From positions 1 through 56,090 of the IMG/VR virus record IMGVR_UViG_3300020045_019291: DNA of 56,090 bases; one strand, written 5' to 3'. The notes below the pieces were generated by a model, which saw only the letters and a program-made list of their open reading frames with translations, was not told where the DNA came from and did not search any database. A program made the position numbers and the translations under genes. Origin of the DNA: a virus. Its lineage: Duplodnaviria > Caudoviricetes. Positions 6,829 through 52,996 of this stretch are shown here, in pieces. Within the stretch, counting starts at the first letter, position 1. Each line of letters opens with the position of its first letter.

Positions 6829-6871
6829 TATAAATAATTTGTACCAGTAATATAAAAATTGATTATGTTTG
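6827..6871 (+). promoter_or_regulatory. Recurrent motif plus Bacteroidota -7 promoter element
   Basis: AGTATAAATAATTTGTACCAGTAATA at 6827-6852; TATGTTTG at 6864-6871. Confidence 0.5.
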
Positions 6872-6904
6872 TATTCAATTAATTTTTAACCAAACTTAAA
6901 AACA

Positions 6905-7276: not shown

Positions 7277-7297
7277 AGACAAAACAGCATATATATT

Positions 7298-7332
7298 AAA
7301 AGCACTGAACTTAAAATTCAGTGCTTTTTTTT
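7298..7332. terminator. Bidirectional intrinsic terminator
   Basis: AAAAGCACTGAA-loop-TTCAGTGCTTTT with T tract, between convergent genes. Confidence 0.8.
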
Positions 7333-7334
7333 GT

Positions 7335-7961
7335 TTAATAACTAGACAACAAACAATTGAAAACGTGGTTTCCCAATGATGGATGAACGCAGTTTCTTAA
7401 AATTTGAACAGGACAATGATTATTGCCGTAATAGATGTTTTCGTCGTAATGAATTCCAAGCCAATCCATCATTGTTTTTTTTTGTCCAATAGTCGCCAAA
7501 TTCATCATTCCTTTTGGAGATTTTGGCAAATCATCCATTGGCGTAATATCAAAGTTTGACCAGAATAAATGACGACCCATTTTTGTTGGATTTCCGTAAG
7601 GCTCATAATATGGAACTACATTTTCTACAAACCACTTCCCTTTGAAATAAGTATTTAAAAATATTATTTCTTCAAACAATTTGCCATCTACAAAACGAAC
7701 CATATTATGACGGGTTGCGCGATTCATCTTCGAATGAGTTTGGCACATTATACCACTTGCAATTACATCATAATCCTTATAGTTTTCCAATAGGAATTGG
7801 TGCGCATCAGCAATTATAACCTTTTGATTTGGCTTCCTCTTTTGCAGAACTGCGGCTATTTTTGGATTTAGTTCTATGTGGGTAATTTCGAAAACACTTT
7901 CATCCAATAATTCAGTAGTGCCTCCAAGTCCTGCGTACAGGTGTAGTAATTTGTATTTCAT
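7335..7961 (-). CDS. DNA cytosine-C5 methyltransferase-like protein
   Basis: Motif I LHLYAGLGG, motif IV-like SGIMCQTHS, motif VI FVENV, RH.FWSNF, C-terminal RNCV; ATG at 7961 preferred over the longer start in the ORF track. Confidence 0.75.
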   Translation of the reverse strand: MKYKLLHLYAGLGGTTELLDESVFEITHIELNPKIAAVLQKRKPNQKVIIADAHQFLLENYKDYDVIASGIMCQTHSKMNRATRHNMVRFVDGKLFEEIIFLNTYFKGKWFVENVVPYYEPYGNPTKMGRHLFWSNFDITPMDDLPKSPKGMMNLATIGQKKTMMDWLGIHYDENIYYGNNHCPVQILRNCVHPSLGNHVFNCLLSSY

Positions 7962-7979
7962 ATCTGGATTTATTTTTAT

Positions 7980-8114
7980 CAAAAGTATAAATAATTGATA
8001 CTAATAGTATGTGTTTTTCGATACTATTTACCTATCGTTTTGTATTTAAGTATCAATTATAATTATTATTAGTACTAATTATTTGTATTTGATAAATATT
8101 ATTTATTACATTTG
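7980..8114. promoter_or_regulatory. Divergent promoter region (MTase leftward, scaffold/capsid rightward)
   Basis: Minus-strand TACTTTTG at 7980-7987; motif copy 7984-8009; inverted motif copy ~8068-8090; plus-strand TTTG (8082) ... TACATTTG (8107-8114). Confidence 0.65.
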
Positions 8115-8141
8115 TCATACCTATAACGAAAATCTATCAAA

Positions 8142-9203
8142 ATGGTTACTGAAGGAACTGAAAACGGTCAAGAAGAAGGAAACAACGAAGGCGCGCAAGC
8201 TGCCGTAATTACCAATGAAGGAACTGCCGCAGGGGAAGGAAATGCCGCCGCCGAACAAGCAGCAATCCCGACCGAACCGTCCGAAGAATCAGTCATAAAA
8301 TATTTCGCCTCCAAAGGCAGGTCCGTCGAGAAATTGGACGATTTGTTTGTGGAAAAAGTCAAAGAGGTTAATCCATACGAAAACACCTCCGACGAACTGA
8401 AACAAATTTTGGCTTACCAGAAAGAAACAGGCCGAGGCGTAAAAGATTACTTCAAGTTGCAGGAAAACATCGATGACAGACCCTTGGTTGATTTGGCGCT
8501 TGAAAAAGTACGCAACGAAGTGGGAGGAACATTCTCTCCCGAAGACCTGACCGCTTATTTGGAAGATGCTTTGGCAATCGACTTGTCGGGCGACTTGACT
8601 CCAACGGAAACGGTGAAGTTGACAAAATTCGTCAAGGATTACAAGGAGCAATTGAAAGCCGACCAGGAGAAATACAAGACTCCGGTGGCAAAAGCTCCAG
8701 AAGCCAAGGCAGACACCGTGGAAATGATCACGCTGGCCGATGGACAACAAGTTGCAAAAAGCGTGTTCGAAGCACACGAAAAAACAAGACAAATTTATTT
8801 GAATGACATAAAAGAAGCAGTGAACAGTGTTGCGGCATCTTCCATTAAAATTGAGTTTGACAATAACGGGGTTAAAGAGGAACTGACCTACAGTTATGAT
8901 TACGATGCAAACGACCACCAGAATATGGTAGCCATTGCAGAGGATCTGGACCAGACAGTCACCAAACTTTTTAGAACCGAAAAAGGGTTCAACCATCAAG
9001 ACTTTATTGAAAGCACTTGGTTTTTGGACCGAACAAACCGGGAAAAATGGGCCGCAGCACTCGTGAACAAAGCAAGAGCAGAAGCCATAACAGAATTAAC
9101 GAAAGCGGAAAACAACGTGAACTTCAACAGGGACGGAATGCCAAAACAAGCAGGCAATCCGAATGTGAGGATAGTTCCAATCAAAGAATTACTCAACCGT
9201 TAA
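8142..9203 (+). CDS. Probable capsid scaffolding protein
   Basis: Acidic low-complexity N-terminus, helical, immediately upstream of the MCP. Confidence 0.65.
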   Translation: MVTEGTENGQEEGNNEGAQAAVITNEGTAAGEGNAAAEQAAIPTEPSEESVIKYFASKGRSVEKLDDLFVEKVKEVNPYENTSDELKQILAYQKETGRGVKDYFKLQENIDDRPLVDLALEKVRNEVGGTFSPEDLTAYLEDALAIDLSGDLTPTETVKLTKFVKDYKEQLKADQEKYKTPVAKAPEAKADTVEMITLADGQQVAKSVFEAHEKTRQIYLNDIKEAVNSVAASSIKIEFDNNGVKEELTYSYDYDANDHQNMVAIAEDLDQTVTKLFRTEKGFNHQDFIESTWFLDRTNREKWAAALVNKARAEAITELTKAENNVNFNRDGMPKQAGNPNVRIVPIKELLNR

Positions 9204-9215
9204 AACCTAGAAATT

Positions 9216-10571
9216 ATGGCTTTCGATTTAAAAACCAACAACCTTACCGGCGCTGCAGTCATTGACCAACCAGGTGGGGTATTAGCGACAGACGCTAACT
9301 TTATCACCCTTTACGATTACGCAATGCAATACCAACCGGAATTAATTCCAGAGTTGCATTATGCCAACGGAAAAGGAAGTATTACAGGAGTTCTTGCTTT
9401 AATGGCAGGTGAAAAAACCTATGCTTCGGACGTAGTTCAGCATATGGAAATGAACCGTTTGATGAACAAGCTTAAAAACGTAACTGTAGTAGGGGATATT
9501 TTCACTTCTGCAACCGACCACAATTTGAGACCCAACATGGTTATCAAAATTTCGGATGGCGTAAAAGAAGTTCAGGCTTATGTAGAATCAATCACTTCAA
9601 GCAAAATCTTTGTTGCCTTGAATGATAAAGAAGGAGCTTACGGCTTTGCTGGCGCAGTGGATATTGTTGCAGATTTTGCCAACAGATGGGACAAAGGAAC
9701 TAAATCTTTCGTGAAAGGAAGAACCTGGAATCCTAAAAAATTCGAGAATTTTACCCACATCACCAAAGAGCGTTACGACGTGAATGAAAGTGACATGGCA
9801 CACAACATTTGGTTGGACACTCCAGACGGACCAAGATGGTGTAACACGGAATTGGAAAGAACCAATACGTTGTTTGACAATTTAATTGAGTTGACCCAAT
9901 TTTTCCACGAAAGAGCTGCTGATGGATCTGATTCTGCAGTTGCCGGATATGCACAAGGTATGAATGGTGTAATTCCAATCGTAGAGAAATACGGTAACAT
10001 TTCGAACAGCTATATTGATTCATTGGCCGCTTTACAAGCTATTGCCAAAAGAATCAAGTTGCAAACCGATTGTACCGAGTACACTTTCTTCTGTGACCAC
10101 GACCAAATGAATAATTTCAACGCAATTTGCGCTGGCGTGAATGCTGCCTTCTTGAACGGAGCAACTTACGGTTCATTCCCTAATGGAAAAGAAATGGCTT
10201 TGGCCTTGGATTTCGTTTCTATTTTCGTGAGTGGCATCACTTTCCACTTTACTGCCTGGAAATTGCTTAACGACCCTACATTGATGTCAGGCGGCAAGTT
10301 TGATACTACCGGTATCGCTTACTTCGGATTGCCAATGGGTAAACAAACCGTTCTTAATATGGAAGGTGGAAAAGAAAGCAAACCATACTTGTCAATCTAC
10401 AATAGAGTGAAAGGCAACGTGAACAGAAAAAGAAAAGCAACCATTTTCGGACTTGGTGGAACTCCACAAGAAGACGACAAAATGACTATGCTTCTTTTGA
10501 ACGAAAGTACTACACAAGTAGTTGGACCCAACGCTTTCTTCGTAGGAAGAAGAGGAGTTGTTTACGCATAA
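9216..10571 (+). CDS. Major capsid protein
   Basis: 451 aa after scaffold, followed by strong terminator; synteny with Bacteroidota podovirus head modules. Confidence 0.75.
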   Translation: MAFDLKTNNLTGAAVIDQPGGVLATDANFITLYDYAMQYQPELIPELHYANGKGSITGVLALMAGEKTYASDVVQHMEMNRLMNKLKNVTVVGDIFTSATDHNLRPNMVIKISDGVKEVQAYVESITSSKIFVALNDKEGAYGFAGAVDIVADFANRWDKGTKSFVKGRTWNPKKFENFTHITKERYDVNESDMAHNIWLDTPDGPRWCNTELERTNTLFDNLIELTQFFHERAADGSDSAVAGYAQGMNGVIPIVEKYGNISNSYIDSLAALQAIAKRIKLQTDCTEYTFFCDHDQMNNFNAICAGVNAAFLNGATYGSFPNGKEMALALDFVSIFVSGITFHFTAWKLLNDPTLMSGGKFDTTGIAYFGLPMGKQTVLNMEGGKESKPYLSIYNRVKGNVNRKRKATIFGLGGTPQEDDKMTMLLLNESTTQVVGPNAFFVGRRGVVYA

Positions 10572-10581
10572 ACAGTAACCT

Positions 10582-10619
10582 AAAAAGCAGGGAGTTTACA
10601 AAATTCCCTGCTTTTTTTT
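10582..10619 (+). terminator. Intrinsic terminator after MCP
   Basis: AAAAAGCAGGGA-loop-TCCCTGCTTTTTTTT. Confidence 0.85.
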
Positions 10620-10632
10620 AATATTTAACAAA

Positions 10633-11697
10633 ATGGGAAAACAAATTGAATTTAGATTAACAGAAAAAAGAACTCCAGCATCGTGGACATTAAGTGGAGG
10701 GTATGCAGTAAAACCGGGAGTTGGAAGTAAACTAATAAACTATTACCCTGGTTCAGACAGTTATTTTGTAGAAGACCAAAAATCTGACGTGAAAGCAAAA
10801 GAGGTTGAGTTTTTCTACAATGATGTTCTTTCCGATCCAGCTACATCTATATTCGTGGATGAAGACAACAAATGTTTGATTGGCTATTTGAAAGCGCATA
10901 CTTTCTTTAATGCGCATTATTATATCCACAACGAAGACCAATTGGCAGAAAACAAACTGGCAGATTACGACAAAATAGAAAAAGCATTCTCGTTGATCAA
11001 GGAAAATGAAGATTTGAAAGTACAGGCTATGGCTTTGGCTATTTTCAAGGAAGAAGCTTTTGGATGGTCCGCCACCAAATGCAAGGCGGAGTTGAAAGAA
11101 AAAGCGACCCGCAACCCAGACGTGATCATCAACGCCATCGAGTCGGAAAAATATGAAAGCAGATATTTGTCGGCTTTGGCATTTTATGCCGGAATCGTGA
11201 AGGAAGACCAATTGAAAGGTGCCGTTATATGGAATGACGAAGACGCAGGAGTTGTTTTGCGCATCGCCAAAGGAGAAAACGGAATCACGAAATTAGGAGA
11301 ATTGTTGTCCACAGTTTCGGATGAAAGCACTCTTGTATTGCAGGAAATCGGGATTCGATTGAACAAGAACACTCCCGTGGAAAACTTGAAGGTGATTGGA
11401 GCCAACACCGTTACCGGAAAAACCGAAGACCAGATCAAGGAAGAGGCAATTGCCGAATTCAAGGCGAGTCTTGCACCCGTGAAAACGGAAGCGGAAATTC
11501 GCGCCGAGATACTGGCTGAAATGGCGGGTGGAGCACCGGATGTCGTGGTAGTTGACAAAAAAGAAGTAATTGCTTTTGACGCCACAAATTTGGAGCAGGT
11601 TCAGGCAAAGTACAAGGAAGTTACCGGAAAAAATATGCCGGTAAATATGAAGAACAACATTGACTGGCTAAATGCCGAGATTAATAAAGGAATTTAA
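10633..11697 (+). CDS. Hypothetical head-associated protein
   Basis: 354 aa ORF downstream of the MCP; positional inference only. Confidence 0.55.
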   Translation: MGKQIEFRLTEKRTPASWTLSGGYAVKPGVGSKLINYYPGSDSYFVEDQKSDVKAKEVEFFYNDVLSDPATSIFVDEDNKCLIGYLKAHTFFNAHYYIHNEDQLAENKLADYDKIEKAFSLIKENEDLKVQAMALAIFKEEAFGWSATKCKAELKEKATRNPDVIINAIESEKYESRYLSALAFYAGIVKEDQLKGAVIWNDEDAGVVLRIAKGENGITKLGELLSTVSDESTLVLQEIGIRLNKNTPVENLKVIGANTVTGKTEDQIKEEAIAEFKASLAPVKTEAEIRAEILAEMAGGAPDVVVVDKKEVIAFDATNLEQVQAKYKEVTGKNMPVNMKNNIDWLNAEINKGI

Positions 11698-11735
11698 AAA
11701 ACCATTTTCGTTTGGTTCTGACTTTCCCAGTCACG

Positions 11736-11763
11736 AAGAAGCCCCGCACTTGCGGGGCTTCTT
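11736..11763. terminator. Terminator hairpin between convergent genes
   Basis: Perfect 13-bp inverted repeat AAGAAGCCCCGCA/TGCGGGGCTTCTT. Confidence 0.75.
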
Positions 11764-11767
11764 TAGT

Positions 11768-12193
11768 TTAATCTTCATCTTCTTCCGTGAAATCGGAAAG
11801 ATTGAATTTCCAGTTGTTAATAAATCCTTCCGCGTCCACTTTCATAATAATGTAGTCACCGTAACCGCTTTCTTCCGGACACAATGTTGCTGGAACATAT
11901 CCTTCCAAGTGAATTACTTTTTCGTCGTTTTCGTCCAAAAGGTAATAATCGCCGTCATCGCAGACTTTGTAATGAATATCCGCGGTTTTCCCAAGATCCC
12001 AGTTTATAATCTTGCCGGTTTCAATGTCGATAACCGGCAGCCAATCGTCTTCGTCAATGACCCTGCACGGAATCAATTTTCCGTCTACGTCTTCCACTCC
12101 GTCCACGGTTGCGTCTTCCCAATATCTTACTCCGGCCCTTACGTGCAAAGTCTTGATTTCGACTTCCACTTCTTTTTTGATTTTTACTTTCAT
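11768..12193 (-). CDS. Hypothetical acidic phage protein
   Basis: ATG-started ORF with VRYWED, HYKVCD and GYGDYI motifs; part of an inverted block. Confidence 0.7.
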   Translation of the reverse strand: MKVKIKKEVEVEIKTLHVRAGVRYWEDATVDGVEDVDGKLIPCRVIDEDDWLPVIDIETGKIINWDLGKTADIHYKVCDDGDYYLLDENDEKVIHLEGYVPATLCPEESGYGDYIIMKVDAEGFINNWKFNLSDFTEEDED

Positions 12194-12220
12194 TTTATGG
12201 GTTTTATGTATTTATAATAA

Positions 12221-12466
12221 TTATTCTTTTTCCTCGTTGCTTTTGACGATATTTTCTACAATTTTTACCGTGTCATCAACACCTTTTTTGTAGCCTATAT
12301 TTTGATATTGAATGGAATAACAGACTATCGCCAACATTAAAAACAATGTTGCAAACGGTAAATAAGGTTTTTCGAAACTGATGCTGAAAGGCGAGAAATT
12401 GATTTTCGGGCTTCCAGTGTAGGCAATGAATAAAAATGCCAGTAATAAAAAAAATGTTGTTTTCAT
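12221..12466 (-). CDS. Hypothetical membrane protein
   Basis: Two hydrophobic segments; ATG MKTTFF at 12466. Confidence 0.6.
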   Translation of the reverse strand: MKTTFFLLLAFLFIAYTGSPKINFSPFSISFEKPYLPFATLFLMLAIVCYSIQYQNIGYKKGVDDTVKIVENIVKSNEEKE

Positions 12467-37976: not shown

Positions 37977-38381
37977 TTAAAACGGTAAATCGTCCGGTTC
38001 TTCCTCTTTCGGTGGCTGGTTTTGCGTTGGAGGTGTTGTAGGAGCTTGTCTGGCCTGTTGTGGCGACGCTGTTTTGTCCTTGGTGGAAGAGTAGAGTTTT
38101 ATTTCGCGCACGAAACATTTCAGGTTGGCTTTCGTGGAGCCGTCTCCGGCTTGGTATACTTCGATGTCTGGTTTTCCCAATACACCGATCAAGCTGCCTT
38201 TTGTGAGCCAAGGCGCTATTGCCGCATTGTTTGTGAAATAAGCGCATTTGTACCAGGTGGTGACGTTTTCGTTTTTTACTTTTTCGGTGACGGCAAGCGA
38301 AAAATTGATCACTTGTGTTGTTCCGAGGTCTTTTACTTCAGCGTCGTTTCCGATGTGTCCTACCAGTGTGAGTTGTTGCAT
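37977..38381 (-). CDS. ssb: Single-stranded DNA-binding protein
   Basis: LVGHIGNDAE, FSLAVTE, TTWY.C, L.KGS.I.V.G; acidic tail DDLPF. Confidence 0.95.
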   Translation of the reverse strand: MQQLTLVGHIGNDAEVKDLGTTQVINFSLAVTEKVKNENVTTWYKCAYFTNNAAIAPWLTKGSLIGVLGKPDIEVYQAGDGSTKANLKCFVREIKLYSSTKDKTASPQQARQAPTTPPTQNQPPKEEEPDDLPF

Positions 38382-38407
38382 TTTTGTTGAGTTTTAAAGG
38401 TTTTTAA

Positions 38408-39211
38408 TTATATTGGCAATGCCATTTTTGATAAAACGTTTGTGCTAACGTGGGTATAAATTTCCGTCGTTTTGCTACTGGAATGCCCTAAATGTTTCTG
38501 AATTATTCTTAAATCGGTTCCAGCTTCTAATAATGCCGTAGCATTACTATGTCGTAATAGATGAAAGTGATAACCTTTTCCAAGATATTTCTTAACGATC
38601 TGGTTGCAGCTTGTGTGTGAATATTGTAAATCGAATTGACCATTGAATAGAAACTCCTTTGGTTTGTAATCTGTAAAGTAAATTCGTAAAATAGAAAGAA
38701 TCTTTTCTGATAATCCCACAATTCGGTCTTTACGACCTTTACTTTGGCGAATGGTAATAATCATTCGTTTGCTGTCAATGTCTGCTATTTTTAGGTTACA
38801 AACTTCGCTCACTCGCATTCCTGTGGAATACGCCAAAGCTATAATTGCTTTATGTTTTGAGTTTTCAATTTTAGAAATACAATCCAATAAAAATTCCTTC
38901 TCGATAATTTGAGGAAGTTTCCTCTCGGATCTTGGATATTCAATATGTTTGAATTTTAACGGTTGTTTTCCGGTGAGTCTATAAAACAACTTCACGGCAG
39001 AAATTCGATGTTTTCTGCCGTTGATTGAGTTTGCCAATAGCAGCCATTGCTTGATTTGTTTTTCTGAAATTTCAGAAGGCTTGGTTGCTACTTTATTGAA
39101 ATACTCCAAAAACAATTTCACCTGACTTGAATAGTTAGAAATGGTGTTTTCGGAATAGTTTTTCAGTTTTAAATCTTCGGAATACAATTCCACATACTTT
39201 CCGATGTTCAT
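38408..39211 (-). CDS. Integron-integrase-related tyrosine recombinase (no IntI-specific insertion)
   Basis: N-terminal YS.NT..NY SAM-like domain; catalytic R (GMRVSE), K (SKGRKDR), H-x-x-R (HLLRHS), LGH, Y (TTEIYTHV); 267 aa. Confidence 0.9.
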   Translation of the reverse strand: MNIGKYVELYSEDLKLKNYSENTISNYSSQVKLFLEYFNKVATKPSEISEKQIKQWLLLANSINGRKHRISAVKLFYRLTGKQPLKFKHIEYPRSERKLPQIIEKEFLLDCISKIENSKHKAIIALAYSTGMRVSEVCNLKIADIDSKRMIITIRQSKGRKDRIVGLSEKILSILRIYFTDYKPKEFLFNGQFDLQYSHTSCNQIVKKYLGKGYHFHLLRHSNATALLEAGTDLRIIQKHLGHSSSKTTEIYTHVSTNVLSKMALPI

Positions 39212-39235
39212 AGCTTTAGGTGTTAAGTTTGTTGG

Positions 39236-39270
39236 TGTTTACAGATGGCTTTTACAAATAGTAGTTATCA
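39236..39270 (+). other. attI-like primary recombination site
   Basis: First GTTA core (39264-39267), 53 bp upstream of the recombinase ATG, with no hairpin to its left; preceded by TTTACAGAT/TTTACAAAT direct repeat. Confidence 0.65.
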
Positions 39271-39474
39271 CTCAGCTTGAGCGAAACCGTCAAGAACTTC
39301 GGTAATTGAATCTCGAATTTGTTTTAATTCTCTATAATTTAAGTCAATATAAGAATCACTATCTTGTGTTTCCATTTGCATTTGACTACAATCTTTTTGA
39401 ATTCTTATTGTGAATTCTCCATTATTATCATTTCCATTAATTTCAATGTAATTAGCTGTTTTTTTAATTTCCAT
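39268..39474 (-). CDS. Cassette 1 gene, hypothetical (68 aa)
   Basis: ATG MEIKK at 39474; stop codon lies in the GTTATCA core. Confidence 0.7.
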   Translation of the reverse strand: MEIKKTANYIEINGNDNNGEFTIRIQKDCSQMQMETQDSDSYIDLNYRELKQIRDSITEVLDGFAQAE

Positions 39475-39499
39475 TTTGTTTGATTTTAAAAAGCCGAAG

Positions 39500-39632
39500 T
39501 GATAACACACGTTAACCACTATTTAGGCATTTGGTTTAATTTAATTATTTTCTTGTACTTGTTTTTATTTTGCTCAACCGAAACATAAGGCTTTCTTAAT
39601 CCTAAACATTGGTTAGCGTGGGAACGTTAGGC
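39500..39632 (+). repeat. attC-like site 1 (133 bp)
   Basis: TAACA-CACGTTAACCACTATTTAGG...CCTAAACATTGGTTAGCGTG-GGAAC-GTTA. Confidence 0.85.
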
Positions 39633-40265
39633 GATATGTCGAGAGCTACAGCGAGAAGCGACATTTATCAGCCATTTAGCAAAATCAGGAGGCGTTGCTT
39701 CACGTTCTTGTTGTGTTACTCTAGGTTTCCATCCCAAATCCCCTTTTCGATGTCCGCTAGTTATTACGAATTCAACTAATTCAAATCTTAAAGGAATTGA
39801 TGGTAAATCTGATATTTTACACCCACATATATAAAGCAATGTCTTTTTTTCTGCCTTATGTCCCCACCAATGCTGATTGACACATATTGTAAATCCTCCA
39901 TATTCATCCACTTCTCTTCCTATAGGTAAATTCATTTCTTTCCAAAGTTTAGAAGCTCTTGGATGCTCAAGAACGCCCCCAAACTTTCTAATTTGATTAA
40001 TTGACCAAATAGCTAATTCTCTTTCACCTTCTCTAGGTTTTGCCATATGCGATAATTGCCCCCAAGCTCTACAAGGAGGATGCGCTATGATTGGATTTTT
40101 TCCATTAAACTTCCTTGCATCTCTTTTTATATCCCAACAATCAACACCTAAAGTTTTATAAATTGAATTTTCACGAACAAAAAGTGCAGAAACAAAAGAC
40201 ACATCGCCTAACAAATGATTGTCGCTATTGCCAGACTGGTCTTTAATTTGAAATTCGGTTTGCAT
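39627..40265 (-). CDS. Cassette 2 gene, cytosine methyltransferase-like protein
   Basis: IIAHPPCRAWG (PC motif IV-like), VLEHP (motif VI-like), Q.WWGH.A.K.T.LY, R..TP..FA; start codon inside attC2, stop is the TTA of the GTTA core. Confidence 0.7.
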   Translation of the reverse strand: MQTEFQIKDQSGNSDNHLLGDVSFVSALFVRENSIYKTLGVDCWDIKRDARKFNGKNPIIAHPPCRAWGQLSHMAKPREGERELAIWSINQIRKFGGVLEHPRASKLWKEMNLPIGREVDEYGGFTICVNQHWWGHKAEKKTLLYICGCKISDLPSIPLRFELVEFVITSGHRKGDLGWKPRVTQQEREATPPDFAKWLINVASRCSSRHIA

Positions 40266-40336
40266 CTTTATGATTTGTGTTTAATTTAATTACTTGGTTT
40301 ATTTTTTGGCAACAGCGACAATCTTTTCCGTTATCG
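40206..40336 (+). repeat. attC-like site 2 (131 bp)
   Basis: TAACAAAT-GATTGTCGCTATTGCCA...TGGCAACAGCGACAATC-TTTTCC-GTTA. Confidence 0.85.
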
Positions 40337-40363
40337 TTCAGCTTGGTTGGAACGGCTAAAGGA

Positions 40364-40576
40364 TTACTTATGATATTTTGATTTTGGTAATTCAAATAAT
40401 TTTCCATTTCTGTCATATAGATTAGAAAAGTTTTCGTGTTGTGGTTGCATTTTATAAACTATCGGTTCCGGTAAAAAAGGTCTCATTCTACGTTGTCTAA
40501 TTTCTTCAAGCCTTTCTTTTTCTAATTCTTGCAATCGCATAACCATTGCATAGATTCTTAATTTTTGTACTGACAT
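40364..40576 (-). CDS. Cassette 3 gene, hypothetical (70 aa)
   Basis: Single ATG ORF between GTTA 40330 and TAAC 40603. Confidence 0.7.
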   Translation of the reverse strand: MSVQKLRIYAMVMRLQELEKERLEEIRQRRMRPFLPEPIVYKMQPQHENFSNLYDRNGKLFELPKSKYHK

Positions 40577-40599
40577 ATTTTGAAAATAAAAAGCCGAAA

Positions 40600-40738
40600 C
40601 GATAACAAATGATATAAGAGATTTTCGGCTTGGTTTATAAATTTAATTTTTGGGTTTGTACTTTTTTACTTTGGTCTTGAACTGAAAGTTTCGGGATTTA
40701 TCCTGCCGAAAATCCTCTCATATCATCGACCGTTAGTG
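40600..40738 (+). repeat. attC-like site 3 (139 bp)
   Basis: TAACAA-ATGATATAAGAGATTTTCGGC...GCCGAAAATCCTCTCATATCAT-CGACC-GTTA. Confidence 0.85.
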
Positions 40739-40749
40739 GCAACCGTCTG

Positions 40750-41115
40750 CTATTCAGTATAAATATTACTTTTAATTTCAAAACTTCCATCATAATCTTT
40801 ATAAAGTTCTGATAAAAAATAAAAAACACTTTGATTTTCGTCAATACAAATAAAAGCAAGAAGTAATTCATCCCATTTTATAACCCAATCGTTCAATTCT
40901 ATATCTCCTTCATAAATTTCATTTTTATTTTTGTCTAATAATCCAGTAAATCTATTGAAAGAAACAACTTTCCATTGTTTGTCAATTCCAAATCTGATAA
41001 GTCCGTTTTTTTCACTTAACAAAGGAATTATAAAAGTATCAATATCTCCTTTTTTATAAGTTCCCCATTTTTCAACTATTAATTCTAATCTGAATCTATA
41101 TTTTATTTCTTTCAT
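40750..41115 (-). CDS. Cassette 4 gene, YopX-family protein
   Basis: MKEIKYR...FTGLLDKNKNEIYEGDI...EI.SNIY. Confidence 0.8.
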   Translation of the reverse strand: MKEIKYRFRLELIVEKWGTYKKGDIDTFIIPLLSEKNGLIRFGIDKQWKVVSFNRFTGLLDKNKNEIYEGDIELNDWVIKWDELLLAFICIDENQSVFYFLSELYKDYDGSFEIKSNIYTE

Positions 41116-41140
41116 AATTGTTAATTTTTACGTGGTATGC

Positions 41141-41275
41141 CACTAACACTTGCTAAACAAGATTCGGGCATTTGTGATTTATTTAAAGTCATTTTTGTAC
41201 TTGGTTTTATGGTTTTTTAATTAGAGGTTCAGGCTTTTCTAATCCCGAACCTCGTTTAGCAAGAGAACGTTAGCA
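41141..41275 (+). repeat. attC-like site 4 (135 bp)
   Basis: TAACA-CTTGCTAAACAAGATTCGGG...CCCGAACCTCGTTTAGCAAG-AGAAC-GTTA. Confidence 0.85.
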
Positions 41276-41276
41276 C

Positions 41277-41558
41277 TCATTTTAAGAACTCGTAGTCACC
41301 ATTGGCGTTTTTCTTAAAAATTGTAATATAACCTTCTGATATTTTGTATAATTTAAAAAACGATAATACTTTTTGCCACCATTTAACTTTTATATATGGG
41401 TCAAATCCAGCAAGAAATCTTCCGTTTTCGTTAGCAACAAACATAACTTTCGTTTTTTCTTCATCAATCCACACGTAATCACCTTTTATAGGTTTGCGAG
41501 AAAAACGAGTGCTAACATACGCTTGTAGCAAGAGGATTTTAGTCTTTAATTTAAACAT
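41277..41558 (-). CDS. Cassette 5 gene, hypothetical (93 aa)
   Basis: ATG lies inside the attC5 loop and the ORF reads through the left arm. Confidence 0.65.
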   Translation of the reverse strand: MFKLKTKILLLQAYVSTRFSRKPIKGDYVWIDEEKTKVMFVANENGRFLAGFDPYIKVKWWQKVLSFFKLYKISEGYITIFKKNANGDYEFLK

Positions 41559-41640
41559 AGTTTTGTACTTTTAAGATTAGTCATTAATTTAATTTGCAGG
41601 ATTTATCTTTTCCTCCTGCTACAAGCGTCAGCCGTTAGCA
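41510..41640 (+). repeat. attC-like site 5 (131 bp)
   Basis: TAACAT-ACGCTTGTAGCAAGAGGA...TCCTCCTGCTACAAGCGT-CAGCC-GTTA. Confidence 0.85.
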
Positions 41641-41654
41641 TCAATGCTACGAAA

Positions 41655-42155
41655 CTACTTATGAAGAACTCCTCCAGTTAATTCACATATAAATTTTAAT
41701 AGTTTTTCCATTTCTGGATTTCTACTTGCGTAAGACAAATAATCTTGTGGTTGACTTAAATTATGTTTGTTGTCTTTAATGTGTTGCAAACACGCTTTTT
41801 CAGTTAAAAATGAATTTTCCAAACGTTCTTCGTAATCATAATTTACTTTACGGTATCCAGCACTTTCCATTTCGCTTTCACGTTCCCAATTAGACATTTC
41901 TTTAATAGCTTTTTTAGTCAAATCTCCATCACGGTAATCATAAATAGCTTGAATGATTTCCTCTTGTGTTTCAATTAAACTTCCGTCATAGTTCCAAGCA
42001 ACAATTCCGTTGCCTTCTGGAACAGCAATTTGATGTTTAGTTTGTACTTGAAAGAAATAAGGCATTGCAGTTCCTCTATGGCTTTGAGTGTTTATTTCTT
42101 TTGACAAATCCATTAAGAAATTATAAGTTTCGTCATTTACTTGAATTGTTTTCAT
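41655..42155 (-). CDS. Cassette 6 gene, phage hypothetical protein (166 aa)
   Basis: ATG MKTIQV at 42155; TQ..R.TA.P.F and FLT.K.C..HI..N motifs of phage hypothetical proteins. Confidence 0.75.
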   Translation of the reverse strand: MKTIQVNDETYNFLMDLSKEINTQSHRGTAMPYFFQVQTKHQIAVPEGNGIVAWNYDGSLIETQEEIIQAIYDYRDGDLTKKAIKEMSNWERESEMESAGYRKVNYDYEERLENSFLTEKACLQHIKDNKHNLSQPQDYLSYASRNPEMEKLLKFICELTGGVLHK

Positions 42156-42185
42156 AAGATGTTTTAGTTTTAATAACCGCACTAA

Positions 42186-42318
42186 TGCTAACACAGGTTT
42201 GCAAAAATGGCAAGTTCAGGTTTAATTTAAAGTTGTTTTTGTGTCTTTGTGGCTTGGTCTTAAACCAAATTTTTAGGCTTGCTTTTTTGCCACTTCTGCA
42301 AGCCTGATAACGTTATGC
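42186..42318 (+). repeat. attC-like site 6 (133 bp)
   Basis: TAACA-CAGGTTTGCAAAAATGGCAA...TTGCCACTTCTGCAAGCCTG-ATAAC-GTTA. Confidence 0.85.
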
Positions 42319-42337
42319 CTAATACTACTATTTAGGA

Positions 42338-42589
42338 TTAAAGACAACCTCTATTTTTTAATTCAGATATAATTGCCGTTTTTTCATCACTATCTTTTTG
42401 TTTCTGAATATAATTATAACACCATTGAAACATATCATTTGATTCGTTTTTGGGTGTGTTTCCGGCTAGTTCTTTAGGGATATAAATAGTTTTAAATATC
42501 TCTTTTTTACAGTTTGTTAAATTTTCACAATAAACTATTTCTGATTTTCCGTTTTCGTGTTTTTCAACTTTACAATTACAATCTTTCAT
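42338..42589 (-). CDS. Cassette 7 gene, hypothetical (83 aa)
   Basis: Single ATG ORF between GTTA 42312 and TAAC 42636. Confidence 0.7.
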   Translation of the reverse strand: MKDCNCKVEKHENGKSEIVYCENLTNCKKEIFKTIYIPKELAGNTPKNESNDMFQWCYNYIQKQKDSDEKTAIISELKNRGCL

Positions 42590-42632
42590 TTTGTTTTTAT
42601 TTATTATTAATTATTTACTTTTGCCGTACTAG

Positions 42633-42712
42633 GCATAACAGCGGCTACATTTCAGCAGCCGAAATCGTGTTGGTACATAGGCTGCCGAAACTGTAGCCGC
42701 AAAACGTTACAC
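42633..42712 (+). repeat. attC-like site 7 (80 bp, short loop)
   Basis: TAACA-GCGGCTACATTTCAGCAGCC...GGCTGCCGAAACTGTAGCCGC-AAAAC-GTTA. Confidence 0.85.
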
Positions 42713-42738
42713 AATAAACTGGATAAAAAAACTCTATT

Positions 42739-44835
42739 TTAAGGCTTGAAATAAGCCTGAAACCTTACCAATTCTGGATATTCCGGGGAGCGAATCAATC
42801 CGTCTCCGGCACCCGCCAATTGTTCCGCACCGCCTTCGTCCAGCACCACTTTTGAATCAATTTCTTTTGGAACACGGAAACAGATTTGGACAGGGAAGTT
42901 TGCTTTTGCGTCTCCGGTTATTACTTTCACGGAAGCCCTTTGGGTTGCGGCCACGATTCTGAAACCAACGGATCGACCTTTTTGAAGCAGGATTCTAAGG
43001 TTTTCTTCCAGCGTGTTTTTGGTGCCGGTTTTTTGAAGTTTCATTTTTGGCACCAAGGTGTCTCCAAACATTCCTTTCATTTTTTGTTGGCCCACTTCCA
43101 CCATTTCCATAATGTCCAATTCCTTGCCTTTTCGTCCTTGGGATTGGGCGTCGGCAAATTCGTCGAAAATTATTAGTGTTTTTTCGTTGCTTCCGGCTTT
43201 CACGCGCTCATTCATTTCGATAACCAATTCTTCCAAGGCCACTTCGATGTCTTCTATTTCGCTGAAAATGTTGACTCCTTTTAGTCCCATTCTGCAAAAC
43301 TCGAATTTTGGATCAAGGATAAAAATATGTTTGACTCCGGCCAGTTTTGCGAATTCGATAATGGTTTTTAATTCCACCGATTTTCCAGAGCCAGTGGCAC
43401 CACAAACCAAGGCGTGGGGAGTGGAATGGTTGTTCAGGTCCCAATGGATGATTTTCTCGAAATTATCTCGGCCAATAGGTATTTTCATATCTACCAAGTC
43501 TTTTTTGGTGAACAAAAGGTCTTTTTCCCTTTTTTTGGAAAGTTCCACGGCTAGATATGCCTTGCCTTCATAAACCACCAAATCTTTGGAAATCCTAACA
43601 TTGGAAACATTCAAGGCGCTTGCCAAATCTAGTTTATGCGACTGAATGGAAGCGATTTTTACGCCTCCGGAAACTGCCAACAAATAAGTGTTGCTGGAAT
43701 AGCCGTCGAACTTGTGTTCTACTTTGACGGGAGCACCAAAGGTTCTAAGAACGTGCTCGATTTTTTCTTCTGGACTCATATTTTTGTTGCTTAAATCGTA
43801 TTGGATGAATTGGGAGGCATTTTCTTGAAACTGCTTGATTACTTTTGGATTGATGGAGCCAATAGAGGCGTCGCGTATTTTTTTCAAACGTCGGGAAACC
43901 AATTCTCGTTTTGACTCGTCCACGTTGAAATCTTCGACTTCGGCAATCAGGGTTTTTGCCCAAAATTCATAAATTTCGGCACTGTCTACCAGATTATCAG
44001 AATCATTGATCATATAGACGTAATCTGGATCGTTTACGGCTTCAAGCATACGTTTTAACGGCTCGTAAAGTAGAGCTTCGTATAACCTGCGATTATCTTT
44101 ATCCAATTCTATTCTAAAGCAGTTTAATTGGCTTGATTTGTCTCGGTTTTCGGAATATTTGTTCTCGACAAACCAGACTTCATCCACGGCAATTCCTGTT
44201 TTGCTTTCGTAGCAATTAACATAGGTTATCGCTTGGCGACCAATGAAAAGTTTCATTTCCTCCTCGCTAGAAAAAGAGTTTTTCGACTTGTGATCGATAA
44301 CCGCCACTTTTCCAGATTTTAGTTTGACGACTAAATCTATCTTGAAATTGCAGGGAAGCGGGATTTCGACGCCGTTGATCGTCACATATTCGGATCCAAA
44401 AACTTCCACGTCCAAGATTTCTTCAATTTGGTCGGTGTAAATACCAACTTCCTTGATAAAAAATTTGAGCAATGCGGTTGCGGTTTTGCAAGCTTTTATT
44501 TTGCACTCGGCAATGGAGGGGGTCGTTTTTTGAACCTTCCATTTATTAGCCGGTGTTTCGTCGATGGTGTCGAATGCCACGGCTTCCAAATCTGCCAAAT
44601 CAAGGGTGTTTCCTTCCTTCAGCGATTGAAAATAAAATTGAAGGGCATTGTGGTAAGCGGTTCCGGCCACGGTAGTTGACGAATTTTTGATGGTGTAGCC
44701 GTAAATGCTGGTCATTTCGAAAGCTTTTTCGTTTCTGGAAAACTCGGCAACTTTTGAAAAGCTCCAACTGTTTACCAAGAATTGGCTTTTTACATTTTCC
44801 AATTCTTCTTCGGTCATTAATTTGTAGGCGCTCAT
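42739..44835 (-). CDS. PD-(D/E)xK nuclease fused to FtsK/SpoIIIE-type ATPase
   Basis: N-half WSFS, GTAYH, KIDLV...VIDHKS, Q...Y (RecB-like); C-half PHALVCGATGSGKS, IIFDEFAD, GRSVG....ATQR, AEQL.G.GDG. Confidence 0.85.
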   Translation of the reverse strand: MSAYKLMTEEELENVKSQFLVNSWSFSKVAEFSRNEKAFEMTSIYGYTIKNSSTTVAGTAYHNALQFYFQSLKEGNTLDLADLEAVAFDTIDETPANKWKVQKTTPSIAECKIKACKTATALLKFFIKEVGIYTDQIEEILDVEVFGSEYVTINGVEIPLPCNFKIDLVVKLKSGKVAVIDHKSKNSFSSEEEMKLFIGRQAITYVNCYESKTGIAVDEVWFVENKYSENRDKSSQLNCFRIELDKDNRRLYEALLYEPLKRMLEAVNDPDYVYMINDSDNLVDSAEIYEFWAKTLIAEVEDFNVDESKRELVSRRLKKIRDASIGSINPKVIKQFQENASQFIQYDLSNKNMSPEEKIEHVLRTFGAPVKVEHKFDGYSSNTYLLAVSGGVKIASIQSHKLDLASALNVSNVRISKDLVVYEGKAYLAVELSKKREKDLLFTKKDLVDMKIPIGRDNFEKIIHWDLNNHSTPHALVCGATGSGKSVELKTIIEFAKLAGVKHIFILDPKFEFCRMGLKGVNIFSEIEDIEVALEELVIEMNERVKAGSNEKTLIIFDEFADAQSQGRKGKELDIMEMVEVGQQKMKGMFGDTLVPKMKLQKTGTKNTLEENLRILLQKGRSVGFRIVAATQRASVKVITGDAKANFPVQICFRVPKEIDSKVVLDEGGAEQLAGAGDGLIRSPEYPELVRFQAYFKP

Positions 44836-47914: not shown

Positions 47915-49210
47915 ATGGCAACCTTAAAACTATTCATTTCGGGCAAGAAAAGCCCGTCGGAAATCAAAGTCAGATATTTGAATGGTCGCGCTATTGATAT
48001 TGTGGCGGGAACCAAATTGTTTATTTTGTCATCTGCCTGGGATGAAAAAAACCAGAAGATTAGAAACGTTATTTCGGTGCCGGATCGCGACAAACTGAAT
48101 TCAAAATTATTGGAATTGAAAAATCATATTTTCAATGCTTCAAATATGGATTTTACCGAGGGGGAAATCTTGAACAGGATTTGGCTGGAAAAATGTATTG
48201 CCAAATATTTCAATCGTCCGTCGAACGAACTTAAAAAAGCACCGGAATACCACAAGATTTACTTGACTGATTTTGCCGAATGGTGGCTTAAATACAAGGC
48301 TCCAAAATTCAAAGTTTCTGCCGAAAAATATATGGACGATACAACTATTCGCCATTATGAAATTTTGAAAAACCTGATCAAGAAATTTGAAGGGAAGGAC
48401 AAAATCAAGTTTTCTTTGATTGACGATGTTTTACTGGACAAGTTCTCGGAATTCTTGACGATTGAAAAATATGCCGAAAAAACAGCTAAGCGAATGATAG
48501 GAAGGTTCAAGTTTTTTTGCGGTCGAGCCGAAGCGGAAAATATCGTCATTAACAAGTCTTATGAGAATCGCGTTTTTGTAAAAAAAGCCGAGATTGAATA
48601 TAAAGAACCTTACTTTGACGAGATTGAAATAAACAAGATTTACAACCACGATTTTAGCCAAAATCAAACTTTGGACGATGTGAGAGACAATTTAATTATT
48701 GGACTTTGGACCGGATTAAGGGTTTCCGACTTTTTGAGCAGGTTGAAAATTGATAATTTCCACGATGATTTTATCGAGGTGCAGACCGAAAAAACAAAAA
48801 CTTTCGTGAGTATTCCAATTCATTGGATGGTTGCTGACATTTTAAAGAAAAGAAATGGTATTTTGCCGTCAAAAATAAGTGATCCAAAATTCAACAAGCA
48901 TATTAAAACGATTGCCAAAATTTTGAAATTTGATCAAATGATGATGGGCGGCGTTTCTACCGTGGATGAAAAGACGGGAATTAAAAGAAAAGTCGTAAAA
49001 TTGTACGAGAAAAACCAGCTCGTAACTAGTCATATTTGCCGCAGAAGTTTTGCGACAAATATATACGGGACTGTGCCAAACACAACTTTAATGGCAATAT
49101 GTGGCTGGGCTAGCGAAGAACAGATGCTTGATTACATCAAGAAAACGAACAGGGAACACGCAGAGACTTTGAAAAAAGTTTGGGATAACAAATACAATAA
49201 AGCAGTTTAA
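47915..49210 (+). CDS. Prophage integrase (Bacteroidota-type tyrosine recombinase with arm-binding and SAM-like domains)
   Basis: TGLRVSD, EKT, SHICRRSFATN, GW, Y.K; 431 aa next to attP; TATATTTG at 47788-47795. Confidence 0.9.
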   Translation: MATLKLFISGKKSPSEIKVRYLNGRAIDIVAGTKLFILSSAWDEKNQKIRNVISVPDRDKLNSKLLELKNHIFNASNMDFTEGEILNRIWLEKCIAKYFNRPSNELKKAPEYHKIYLTDFAEWWLKYKAPKFKVSAEKYMDDTTIRHYEILKNLIKKFEGKDKIKFSLIDDVLLDKFSEFLTIEKYAEKTAKRMIGRFKFFCGRAEAENIVINKSYENRVFVKKAEIEYKEPYFDEIEINKIYNHDFSQNQTLDDVRDNLIIGLWTGLRVSDFLSRLKIDNFHDDFIEVQTEKTKTFVSIPIHWMVADILKKRNGILPSKISDPKFNKHIKTIAKILKFDQMMMGGVSTVDEKTGIKRKVVKLYEKNQLVTSHICRRSFATNIYGTVPNTTLMAICGWASEEQMLDYIKKTNREHAETLKKVWDNKYNKAV

Positions 49211-51379: not shown

Positions 51380-52996
51380 TTAAAATAACTCTGGGTTTAA
51401 AACGAAAGTTTTTAAAACGATTGGTTTTACCTTCATTTCGTGCGTTGGGCGTGGCTTTGGTTGTGCTGCCGCTTTTTCTTTTTGTCGCTCGGTGCGCTTG
51501 TCTGGTGCTTTCTCGAAAAGCGGATAGCCTTTTAGTTTTGCAACTCTTTGGTTAAACCTTCCCCAAAGTTCACGATCCAAAAATTCAAAATGAATTGTTC
51601 CTTTTTTGAAACATTTTATGTTGAAATAACCCCATTTTGTCCATTGCCCCCATTCTGTTTTTGAATCTTCAATAGTGGCGTTAATTCCTTTGCTTGTTAA
51701 ATTGTCTCTTCGTATTGCTGCTCTTTGATACTCGTCAAAATTATCTTCATAACTGCCGTAACTACCATTATGCAGTACTTTGTATCTGTAGGTAATTTGA
51801 TGTTTCAATGATAATTTATCGTCATAATTATCGCCAGTTACAAAACAAATTGCTTTTACCAAATCTTCCATTCTTTCGAAGTTTCCCCAAGAGCAATCGT
51901 CCACTTGTCCGCTATAACCCACTTTTACCATATCGGGAATGATAAATTTTTGATTCAACAAATAATGGCTATTTGTCTTCCAGCCTTCAACATTAAAACG
52001 GTTGTCGTGGTAATGTTCCGTAACCTTGTCGAACACCTCTAAAATGGCTTTATCCATTGTTTGTTCCTGTGTTTGTACCACATTGGCAAGCATCACGTAA
52101 ATATTGCGCATAGTAAAAGGGATCTCTGTTTTTTCTTCAACAAATTTGTTAATGTCGTCACGCATTCCCCTGGTGGCGTATTTCTGCATATTCATTTTGG
52201 CAAAAATAAATTTCCAGCCGCTTTTTTGCATTTCTTTCTTGAAAGAGGCTCTTTCGATTGGTTTTTTGTCATTGGTAATACTCATACCCATTTGAACCGA
52301 AAAATAGCCTTTTGTCAATTGGTTCATTTTTTCGGCTTCTTCCAGTTGACGATCAAAAATTTTGATACTGGCAACGTATCTATTAACCAAGTCGCGAACA
52401 AAATTATAGCTCATTATTCCTTCCCCGTCCGGCTCTTCTTCCTCGTCCAAGAAAAAACCTTCGAACTCCGTGGAATAGCTGGCGCCGGGTTTTTGTAAAA
52501 TGATCAATCCAATTTCAACGCCTGTTTCACGTTCCGAATTTTCAAAACAATTACCCAAATTTTTGAAGCTGCCGTATAAGTCAATATTGTTTTTTAGTTC
52601 TTTTCGGGCTTGGGTGTGGGTGTTTTTAATTGTATTTGCATTACATAAAGCAATGATTTTGCAGCCAGCCGGGGCAATGGCGAAAGCGTGTGTAATATGC
52701 TTTTCGTCTGCGCTAAATGGTGGATTCATCACAATTAAATCAATGTGCGAAATCGTGGAACTTTCAAGGTTTAAAAAATCAGATTCTAAAAACCTTGCTT
52801 TTTGGCTTGAAATGTGCGCCAAGTCTTCATTTGATTCGCAAAATAAAACCTCTTTAGCTCCGTAAAGGGTCAAATAATCAATTATATTTCCCTTTCCTGC
52901 GGATGGTTCCAAAATGGTTTTATTTTCTATCTCGATGCCTTCCAGCATTTGATAAATCACGTCTTCGGGCGTTGGGTAAAAGTCTGGATTGAACAT
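51380..52996 (-). CDS. Amino-methyltransferase with DUF4942-like C-terminal domain
   Basis: DFYPTP, ILEPSAGKG, IVMNPPF; C-terminal WKTN...K.IIP and YF.IKCFKKGTIH.EF. Confidence 0.85.
   Translation of the reverse strand: MFNPDFYPTPEDVIYQMLEGIEIENKTILEPSAGKGNIIDYLTLYGAKEVLFCESNEDLAHISSQKARFLESDFLNLESSTISHIDLIVMNPPFSADEKHITHAFAIAPAGCKIIALCNANTIKNTHTQARKELKNNIDLYGSFKNLGNCFENSERETGVEIGLIILQKPGASYSTEFEGFFLDEEEEPDGEGIMSYNFVRDLVNRYVASIKIFDRQLEEAEKMNQLTKGYFSVQMGMSITNDKKPIERASFKKEMQKSGWKFIFAKMNMQKYATRGMRDDINKFVEEKTEIPFTMRNIYVMLANVVQTQEQTMDKAILEVFDKVTEHYHDNRFNVEGWKTNSHYLLNQKFIIPDMVKVGYSGQVDDCSWGNFERMEDLVKAICFVTGDNYDDKLSLKHQITYRYKVLHNGSYGSYEDNFDEYQRAAIRRDNLTSKGINATIEDSKTEWGQWTKWGYFNIKCFKKGTIHFEFLDRELWGRFNQRVAKLKGYPLFEKAPDKRTERQKEKAAAQPKPRPTHEMKVKPIVLKTFVLNPELF

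Follow-up and report, generated by a model that had tools for sequence, protein, structure and literature searches.

Whether a bacteriophage can own a gene-capture platform is the question raised by a locus on a linear stretch of 56,090 nt from a tailed virus (Duplodnaviria; Caudoviricetes). This stretch, referred to below as the window, is the complete IMG/VR virus record IMGVR_UViG_3300020045_019291, with a completeness estimate of 77%. Integrons are bacterial gene-capture devices, and recent work has found that they store anti-phage defences. The original prediction for window positions 38408–42712, made by a model from the letters alone, described a phage-borne counterpart consisting of a 267-aa tyrosine recombinase, an attI-like site, and seven gene cassettes. 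Our analysis of the locus and its relatives points the same way, and we put at about 0.8 the probability that it represents an integron-like cassette platform in which a small recombinase and a fixed docking site accompany one-gene cassettes. The platform itself is supported by the relatives, while the capture and shuffling of cassettes by the neighbouring recombinase is what we infer from linkage.

Seven contiguous units span positions 39265–42706, each composed of one minus-strand open reading frame (ORF) and one imperfect hairpin site. All seven units end where the prediction had placed their boundaries, on the G of a CGTTA (39626, 40330, 40732, 41269, 41634, 42312, and 42706), each with a matching TAACA (at 39503, 40209, 40603, 41144, 41513, 42189, and 42636, respectively). 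Measured from TAAC through GTTA, the sites are 74–133 nt long, which corrects the 80–139 bp first given for the palindromes. The rule of one ORF per unit held, with products of 70–212 aa; a few short overlapping ORFs of 40–57 aa are present besides. Further copies of CGTTA (39510 and 41429) and TAACA (41017 and 42417) in the region belong to no site. A scanner requiring TAAC and GTTA spaced 55–200 nt apart and at least 10 of 12 Watson–Crick pairs returned exactly these seven sites on the plus strand of the 56-kb window and one extra match on the minus strand (41017–41123), which is probably due to chance; 20 shuffles of the window gave a mean of 0.35 sites and a maximum of 1. The long-range stem is present in the minimum-energy single-stranded DNA (ssDNA) fold of six of the seven sites, and an Rfam search of the sites returned nothing relevant.

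Integron cassettes were once circles cut at G|TT; for this reason, the bases on the 5' side of the first core pair with the opening bases of the same cassette and not with those downstream of the site. The 12 nt preceding TAAC matched the reverse complement of their own unit start at 7, 10, 7, 8, 10, 8, and 9 of 12 positions in the seven units, whereas the same 12 nt compared with the sequence after their own CGTTA gave only 2, 1, 2, 1, 5, 4, and 4 matches. The signature of circular permutation is present in 7/7 units, with exact runs of 4–6 nt past GTTA, and in a permutation test the observed sum was reached by 4 of 100000 random assignments. We regard this signature as the decisive check on the units. 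The first unit pairs in the permuted manner with the sequence following a GTTA at position 39264; this GTTA marks the docking site.

This attI-like junction occupies 39212–39267, with the predicted crossover between G39264 and T39265, 55 nt upstream of the recombinase start codon. Read in the direction of the gene, it consists of TAA|C followed by a TACTATATGTA-like sequence that is kept in relatives, several positions being invariant across 55 aligned loci, while on the cassette side of the bar the sequence is unrelated from locus to locus. A regular expression for the junction matched in 60 of 81 loci, and the consensus of 55 is invariant on the recombinase side only. The junction thus resembles attI in lying beside the integrase gene with conservation restricted to the integrase side. 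Between the window and the closest loci, nucleotide homology comprises only the attI stretch and the gene, beginning no more than 3 nt from the crossover and stopping at the stop codon; a conserved site 3' of the stop codon was looked for and none was found. The genes bordering the recombinase and the array in the window, encoding a single-strand binding protein (SSB) and an FtsK-like protein, are not common to the relatives (one weak SSB match in 80 loci), and the shared SSB–FtsK synteny expected in near relatives had to be rejected. Since homology is limited to the docking site and the gene and the neighbours are unshared, the recombinase and docking site form a module that sits in many phage backgrounds.

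The candidate cassette integrase adjoining the array is a 267-aa Xer-like tyrosine recombinase encoded at 38408–39211 on the minus strand. Its assignment as a tyrosine recombinase was confirmed by Pfam (Phage_integrase, E 1.8e-36, together with SAM-like N-terminal domains). The catalytic residues R133, K161, H217, R220, H243, and Y252 are present and conserved in 64/64 relatives (the lysine in 62/64), and the enzyme is predicted to be intact in its catalytic residues. All NCBIfam scores were under the cut-off, namely XerA_Arch 187.8 (220), XerC 155.1 (335), and XerD 154.3 (330), and the integron-integrase models failed as well (TIGR02249 gave 139.6 bits and NF011946 gave 90, with cut-offs of 265 and 435, respectively). 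The alignment to the Vibrio integron integrase IntI4 (2a3v) breaks, with query residues 176–212 (37 aa) opposite chain positions 178–262 (85 aa), and the IntI-specific insertion is absent; the description of the enzyme as non-IntI was therefore correct. The best structure relative is XerA (4a8e), which aligns end to end with no break (1.8e-31). The recombinase is nearest to archaeal XerA models and structures, yet it stays under every curated cut-off. The matches listed include more than 120 clusters with at least 83% identity, all of about 267 aa and named only as generic recombinase or XerD; some of them lie on Flavobacterium chromosomes of 3.6–3.9 Mb, where the copies presumably sit in prophages. 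The system would have remained hidden in plain sight because this abundant recombinase family carries only generic labels.

A scan of IMG/VR with the recombinase produced 80 loci at 53–95% identity. They contain 154 sites upstream of the gene with the expected orientation (4.41 per 10 kb), whereas 9 lie downstream (0.18 per 10 kb) and 9 are oppositely oriented. Of the 59 loci in which 700 nt or more precede the gene, 50 have a site. When divided at the cores, the arrays yielded 152 cassettes (median length 518 nt). Their ends are complementary for at least 3 nt past GTTA in 119 cases (exactly 6 nt in 91 and 5 nt in 23), against control values of 7.9% for the adjacent flank of the same hairpin and 6.3% for random pairs; at position 7 of the pairing, a G systematically stands opposite a T on one strand. 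The inversion of ORFs noticed in the window is a property of the phage arrays in general: in 147 of the 152 cassettes the gene is flipped relative to site polarity, with the site lying 5' of the gene.

The cassette content of these loci is highly variable. At 70% identity and coverage, 141 of the 152 cassettes are singletons, and none of the seven window cassettes recurs in the 80 loci, even where the recombinase is 91–95% identical. One repeated cassette lies next to the docking site in locus L036, is third of seven in L007, and is third of four in L044; a second lies next to the docking site in L006 and is first in L044. In the cassette families F1 and F2, TAA|C delimits the similar stretch at either end, and outside it follows another site or the docking site. 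The comparison of related phages proposed together with the prediction gave the predicted outcome, namely differing cassette sets with breakpoints at G|TTA; since the ssb-to-FtsK interval is not conserved, it was anchored on the recombinase. Contigs of four other studies carry single cassettes or sites of the window with ends no more than 4 nt from the junctions. Cassette 5 occurs on contigs of three studies (41266–41637, 41258–41636, and 41268–41637) that continue into unlike sequence, while contigs of other runs cover 40331–40607, starting at the cassette 3 boundary, or exactly 42636–42709, which is site 7; loose contig ends fall at 39264, 41633, 41637, and 40736. These public sequencing runs were available as contigs only, holding at most 13% of the region's sampled words; none of them has the array in full, which makes them no guide to the habitat, the source, or the absence of variants.

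Two loci deviate in arrangement. In L083 (1674–4018), the recombinase gene is truncated at residue 154 and followed by four inverted sites, which may reflect an inversion between sites or an assembly chimera. L077, a 76-kb viral contig, has four sites upstream and three downstream of the recombinase in one orientation (1947–12408).

Cultured phages provide a comparison at the level of isolates. Two window sites match cultured Flavobacterium phages at 83–91%: the site of cassette 6 is 83% identical to sites of Muminvirus phages, and that of cassette 1 has a copy with 90.8% identity in Flavobacterium phage 11b (L003, 4690–5200); the final core of this copy reads CTTA for GTTA, and it is apparently a decayed site. 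Muminvirus mumin6-1 has at least six sites in a single orientation, with genes on the other strand, among them several DNA methyltransferases. Comparison of Muminvirus isolates revealed flanks with 99.9% identity and differences consisting of whole cassettes. A 506-nt cassette present in mumin6-1 is missing in mumin6-3; filifjonk9-1 shows two insertions, one of them comprising three cassettes, and tooticki6-1 one replacement. In all four events, the junctions lie at CG|TTA and the empty site is continuous through the shared core. Phage 11b and the Muminvirus isolates have no relative of the recombinase in their genomes; even so, their array starts at a docking-site-like sequence. The Muminvirus isolates are reported to vary in methyltransferase content, which goes with plating efficiency, and the available part of that report mentions neither palindromes nor integrons (PMC7077304). 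Polaribacter phage P12002L contains two cassettes of the present type, with sites at 38035–38090 and 38879–38936 and ORFs on the other strand. Gene variation in another group of Polaribacter phages was considered and rejected as a product of the cassette system: Freya_10 and Freya_1 (L001, 1–4200, versus L002) differ in up to 4.9 kb of small genes directly upstream of an integrase with 34% identity to the window recombinase, and a scan of this variable region for TAAC...GTTA hairpins found none.

Relatives of the recombinase in bacterial genomes comprise one close match (L086), two at 64–67% identity (L087 and L088), and others at 38–46%, mostly in Bacteroidota. Beside such genes, with 40–46% identity in Bacteroidota chromosomes, we found arrays with the same type of site, 34 sites lying downstream of the recombinase (1.29 per 10 kb) and 1 upstream (0.02 per 10 kb). 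The sites are co-oriented with the recombinase gene and occur in 15 of the 37 loci with at least 2 kb of downstream sequence; the ORFs precede their sites in the classical orientation (9/9), and cassette ends are permuted in 10/13. Arrays of sites of about 125 nt lie downstream of a 347-aa relative (L127, 8822–11097; L159, 10507–14418; L132; L095; L157; L110). The recombinase of L127 has 347 aa and 43% identity to that of the window and passes XerA_Arch at 233.6 and passes the NCBIfam model named 'site-specific tyrosine recombinase/integron integrase'; it fails the integron-integrase model and is without the IntI insertion. A docking-like junction was noticed about 100 nt past the recombinase stop codon in L127, and the loops of the chromosomal ~125-nt sites have a common conserved sequence. 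One contig binned as Nitrospirae (L154, 1953–5347) encodes a recombinase with 44% identity followed by four short sites of 58–71 nt; the family may reach past Bacteroidota, or the contig may be misbinned. No phage cassette protein had a match in the sampled chromosomal arrays, and eight matches fell in L086, L087, and L146 outside co-oriented arrays. Taken together, the predicted system is widespread in Flavobacteriia phages, and it has kin among chromosomal arrays of the host phylum that had gone unrecognised.

The sites of the relatives allowed the structure to be described in detail. Covariation over 157 distinct sites demonstrates that the structure is conserved and the stem sequence is not, as had been noticed for the seven window sites. 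The sites begin with TAAC and 1–2 unpaired nt, followed by a 12-bp stem in which most positions show 3–4 Watson–Crick pair types. Position 13 is A·C or C·A on the window plus strand in 66% of the sites, corresponding to a G·T wobble on the other strand. A further stem of 5–6 bp follows this mismatch, and stem positions 15–19, which are not part of the detection rule, are paired in 65–81%. Beyond the stem come a loop of ~20 or ~70 nt, the return arm, 4–5 unpaired nt ending in C (155/157), and GTTA. Two size classes are present, with 36 sites of ~70–90 nt and 122 of ~115–135 nt. As to the non-canonical attC of the original prediction, the geometry of the 7 window sites and the 157 sites of relatives is attC-like, including spacers of 1–2 versus 4–5 nt, but most sites have a length of about 125 nt.

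The bottom strand, which reads TAACG...TGTTA and corresponds to the window minus strand, gives the better fold in 135 of the 161 phage sites (p 4e-20). For the chromosomal sites the same strand folds better in 18 of 25 (p 0.006), though it is antisense to the ORFs there. Since the folding asymmetry is the same despite the opposite ORF strand, the strand bias follows the polarity of the site and of recombination, not transcription, and this favours a folded DNA strand as the substrate. The site loops contain 48% A on the TAACG...TGTTA strand, and AAATTAA is present in 35% of loops versus 9% of shuffled ones. By the first-start rule, the ORF start falls inside the site in 57 of 147 cassettes; the site loop probably doubles as a translation start region. 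In the window, the loops (39520–39600, 40236–40310, and others) are A-rich on the mRNA-sense strand, often with TAAATTAAA directly ahead of ATG. A role of the loop as a host-type promoter was considered and found no support, as the Bacteroidetes-type -7 motif is not enriched in the loops (0% on the sense strand; 16% on the antisense strand versus 13% in shuffled loops).

Based on these data, the following mechanism could be proposed. The 267-aa recombinase would cut within the conserved CG|TTA core, cassettes would be excised as circles by recombination between two sites and inserted by recombination between a site and the attI-like site, and the reactive form would probably be the folded minus strand of the window ('bottom' by integron convention). 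Excision and insertion at CG|TTA would produce exactly the circularly permuted cassette ends observed. The genes of the phage array are read toward the recombinase and are thereby transcribed with the leftward replication and recombination operon of the phage.

Several observations weigh against this reading. The IntI-specific insertion, which integron integrases need for folded attC, is absent from the recombinase. Sites, and even cassette polymorphisms, also occur in Muminvirus, 11b, and P12002L, whose genomes have no relative of the recombinase; at least there, an enzyme supplied in trans by the host or by another phage is therefore sufficient. No site was found in 9 of the 59 loci with upstream sequence, and 33 of the 152 cassettes are without the end signature, although the latter are mostly long intervals, probably with a missed site. 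Many of the 80 IMG/VR loci come from one sample series and are not all independent. The z-scores of the ssDNA folds range from -0.5 to -4.8, falling below -3 in only 3/7 window sites and being modest in 4/7, because loops of about 70 nt are energetically costly; fold energies by themselves are weak evidence for the sites. Finally, no recombination product, circle, or mixed array was seen in the run contigs, which cannot show rare joints.

An alternative that we consider unlikely is that the array is real but was built and reshuffled in trans, by an array-linked recombinase of the host or by that of a co-infecting phage, while the 267-aa enzyme has another task, such as genome dimer resolution or help in integration. 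The recombinase-less phages, with sites and cassette polymorphisms of their own, are what this alternative would lead one to expect, and hosts of the phylum do encode relatives beside their own arrays. However, it does not account for the tight and oriented linkage in the phages, with 154 sites upstream and 9 downstream of the gene and sites in 50/59 loci, nor for a conserved docking sequence that abuts the gene and, together with it, is all that is kept across unrelated phage backgrounds. The ORFs are oriented oppositely in phage (147/152) and chromosomal (9/9) cassettes, indicating that the two cassette pools are not simply shared, and for integration the window has a separate 431-aa integrase.

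Two further explanations dispense with a cassette recombinase altogether. T4-type phages contain small accessory genes in a variable region, each flanked by a conserved intergenic stem-loop known as PeSL, and closely related phages of this kind differ in gene content, according to the available portions of the reports (PMC2839356, PMC4122927). The hairpins analysed here could likewise be regulatory modules, with swapping by homologous recombination between similar intergenic elements. The position of the sites 5' of each ORF, with start codons often in or just past the site, the A-rich loops with their AAATTAA excess, and the occurrence of some sites at 83–97% identity in common to different cassettes would be in line with this. 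We nevertheless hold it to be very improbable, given that the breakpoints lie at one fixed dinucleotide step in a 4–7-nt core despite unlike stems, that circularly permuted ends are unexpected under homologous exchange, that the loops are without the Bacteroidetes-type -7 motif, and that in the chromosomal arrays the same site type comes after the ORFs, not before. Still less credence can be given to the view that the palindromes act in RNA only, as terminators, processing sites, or translational regulators, with the cassette pattern as a by-product. In the phages the more stable strand is indeed the mRNA-sense strand, and the hairpin loop presents the start codon in some cassettes; in the chromosomal arrays, however, stability favours the strand antisense to the ORFs (18/25), no Rfam match was obtained, and the permuted ends, the attI junction, and the insertion polymorphisms would be left unexplained.

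The integron-like platform preferred here combines features of several known systems. Like an integron, it has a tyrosine recombinase, an adjacent docking site, and an array of one-gene cassettes; the sites are imperfect hairpins bounded by ..AAC and GTT.. with covarying stems, a variable loop, and one strand that folds better; the crossover is compatible with G|TT and the cassette ends are circularly permuted; and in chromosomal arrays of the present type the genes have the classical orientation relative to site polarity. It differs in having a 267-aa enzyme below the integron-integrase model and without the IntI insertion, in the size of most sites, and, for the phage arm, in its carrier, in the inverted ORFs with the site 5' of the gene, and in being read toward the recombinase from an upstream operon and not from a Pc promoter. 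The cassette ORFs of the phage arrays are accordingly neither co-oriented with the sites nor Pc-expressed. With Xer recombinases the enzyme shares its best sequence and structure relatives and the same domain plan with no insertion, but it scores below all Xer cut-offs, and its gene lies beside a cassette array and a conserved attI instead of in a housekeeping context. PeSLs are promoter–terminator motifs thought to act via homologous recombination. The resemblance to them lies in small, stem-loop-flanked accessory genes in a phage variable region, whereas the stems here are unlike, the breakpoints fixed, the ends permuted, and a dedicated recombinase linked; promoter and terminator sequences common to the elements were not found, since the stems differ and there is neither a -7 motif nor a T-run after the hairpins.

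The I2 helix of IntI is thought to be essential for recombination of hairpin sites, and if the reading is true, this type of recombination arose, or persists, without it. XerCD integrates the folded single strand of the Vibrio phage CTX at dif, which would be a precedent for hairpin substrates without the IntI domain. The system would let one ask, in a natural setting, whether recombination of folded hairpin sites truly requires the IntI-specific domain. In a survey of tyrosine recombinases, the IntI insertion was described as 'not fully conserved' in an integron-like subgroup.

No description of the present system was found in the limited body of literature searched, the nearest being attC clusters in virulent phages. 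From a screen of 10,705 phage genomes with standard finders, Qi et al. (2023) reported three complete IntI integrons, carried by temperate phages, as well as 17 attC clusters lacking an integrase (CALIN), including one in P12002L with two methyltransferase cassettes, of which one attC was recombined by IntI1 from the bottom strand only (PMC9892861). The two sites found here in P12002L may be those of that cluster. As in a CALIN, no integrase is near the clusters of Muminvirus, 11b, and P12002L, whereas one is present in the window. In its available part, the study differs in describing no recombinase of the phage's own, attI, family-wide arrays, Flavobacterium phages, or Xer (PMC9892861). Two corrections apply to the original prediction: a phage location alone is not new (PMC9892861, available part), and the system is not peculiar to phages, with relatives on Bacteroidota chromosomes as well. 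Bacteroidota are listed in the available part of a preprint among the clades earlier found without integrons, and in one Flavobacterium genome paper IntegronFinder found no integron.

The seven window cassettes, all on the minus strand, have little similarity to known families, three matching phage families of unknown function and four matching nothing. Cassette 1 (39265–39626) contains ORF 39268–39519 (83 aa, no family) and site 39503–39629. In cassette 2 (39627–40330; site 40209–40333), ORF 39627–40265 encodes a 212-aa protein of phrog_12600, function unknown, for which the protein atlas gave a weak lead to C5 DNA-methylase clusters; the ORF starts within the site loop, one hairpin arm therefore coding for the N-terminus, and the site has 97% identity to one in locus L044 that belongs to a different cassette. 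Cassette 3 (40331–40732) carries ORF 40364–40576 (70 aa, no family) and site 40603–40735, cassette 4 (40733–41269) ORF 40750–41115 (121 aa, YopX / phrog_98) and site 41144–41272, and cassette 5 (41270–41634) ORF 41277–41558 (93 aa, no family) and site 41513–41637. Cassette 6 (41635–42312) contains ORF 41655–42194 (179 aa, phrog_3205, function unknown) and site 42189–42315, and cassette 7 (42313–42706), at the distal end of the array, ORF 42338–42589 (83 aa, no family) and a short-class site at 42636–42709 with a fold z-score of -4.8.

The 147 cassette ORFs of the phage arrays have a median of 106 aa and few Pfam matches. These comprise N6/N4 methylases (5), C5 methylases (3), D12 methylases (2), PAPS reductases (3), and one each of Mom, dATP/dGTP pyrophosphohydrolase, GNAT, HD, and YopX; PHROG matches are headed by methyltransferase families. 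The cargo is accessory, turns over quickly, and consists mostly of small proteins without known function; it fits a store of counter-defence and host-takeover genes. The platform looks like a means by which the phage itself gathers and swaps accessory genes, anti-restriction DNA methylases among them. With less confidence than the platform itself, but still favouring it, we propose a broader view: a so far unrecognised, Bacteroidota-wide branch of integrons employing plain Xer-like integrases without the IntI domain, in which the chromosomal arm is classical, the phage arm is flipped for reading within the phage operon, and the phage arm holds a reserve of counter-defence genes, including orphan methylases, Mom, and many unknowns, that Flavobacteriia phages exchange with one another. 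If so, the phage arm would be a viral mirror of the bacterial integrons that store anti-phage defences, and a phage-owned counterpart of the integron would alter the reading of phage accessory regions, explaining by a defined mechanism how early accessory genes turn over so rapidly. The cassette boundaries could serve as a handle for mining hundreds of candidate anti-defence genes, and the findings further suggest that Bacteroidota harbour integron-like arrays.

Most genes between about 31 kb and 56 kb of the window are read leftward. This block includes, in the order of transcription, the gene of a 698-aa FtsK/HerA-like protein with a PD-(D/E)XK nuclease domain (42739–44835), the seven small ORFs, the 267-aa recombinase, and SSB (37977–38381). 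A second tyrosine recombinase of 431 aa is encoded at 47915–49210 on the plus strand (Pfam Phage_integrase 29.6 bits, phrog_216). This enzyme probably serves as the integrase for lysogeny, and its presence suggests that the phage is temperate; we regard a temperate Flavobacterium-type phage as the likely carrier of the integron-like cassette platform. In one sequencing run (X1), a contig joins the SSB gene to the FtsK-like gene (38351 to 42739), skipping the recombinase and the array; the joint may stem from a relative that lacks the module or has a different one in its place, and nothing was concluded from it. Outside the array, a 538-aa protein encoded at 51380–52996 on the minus strand matches the phage DNA methyltransferase families phrog_32703 and phrog_31814 with its N-terminus.

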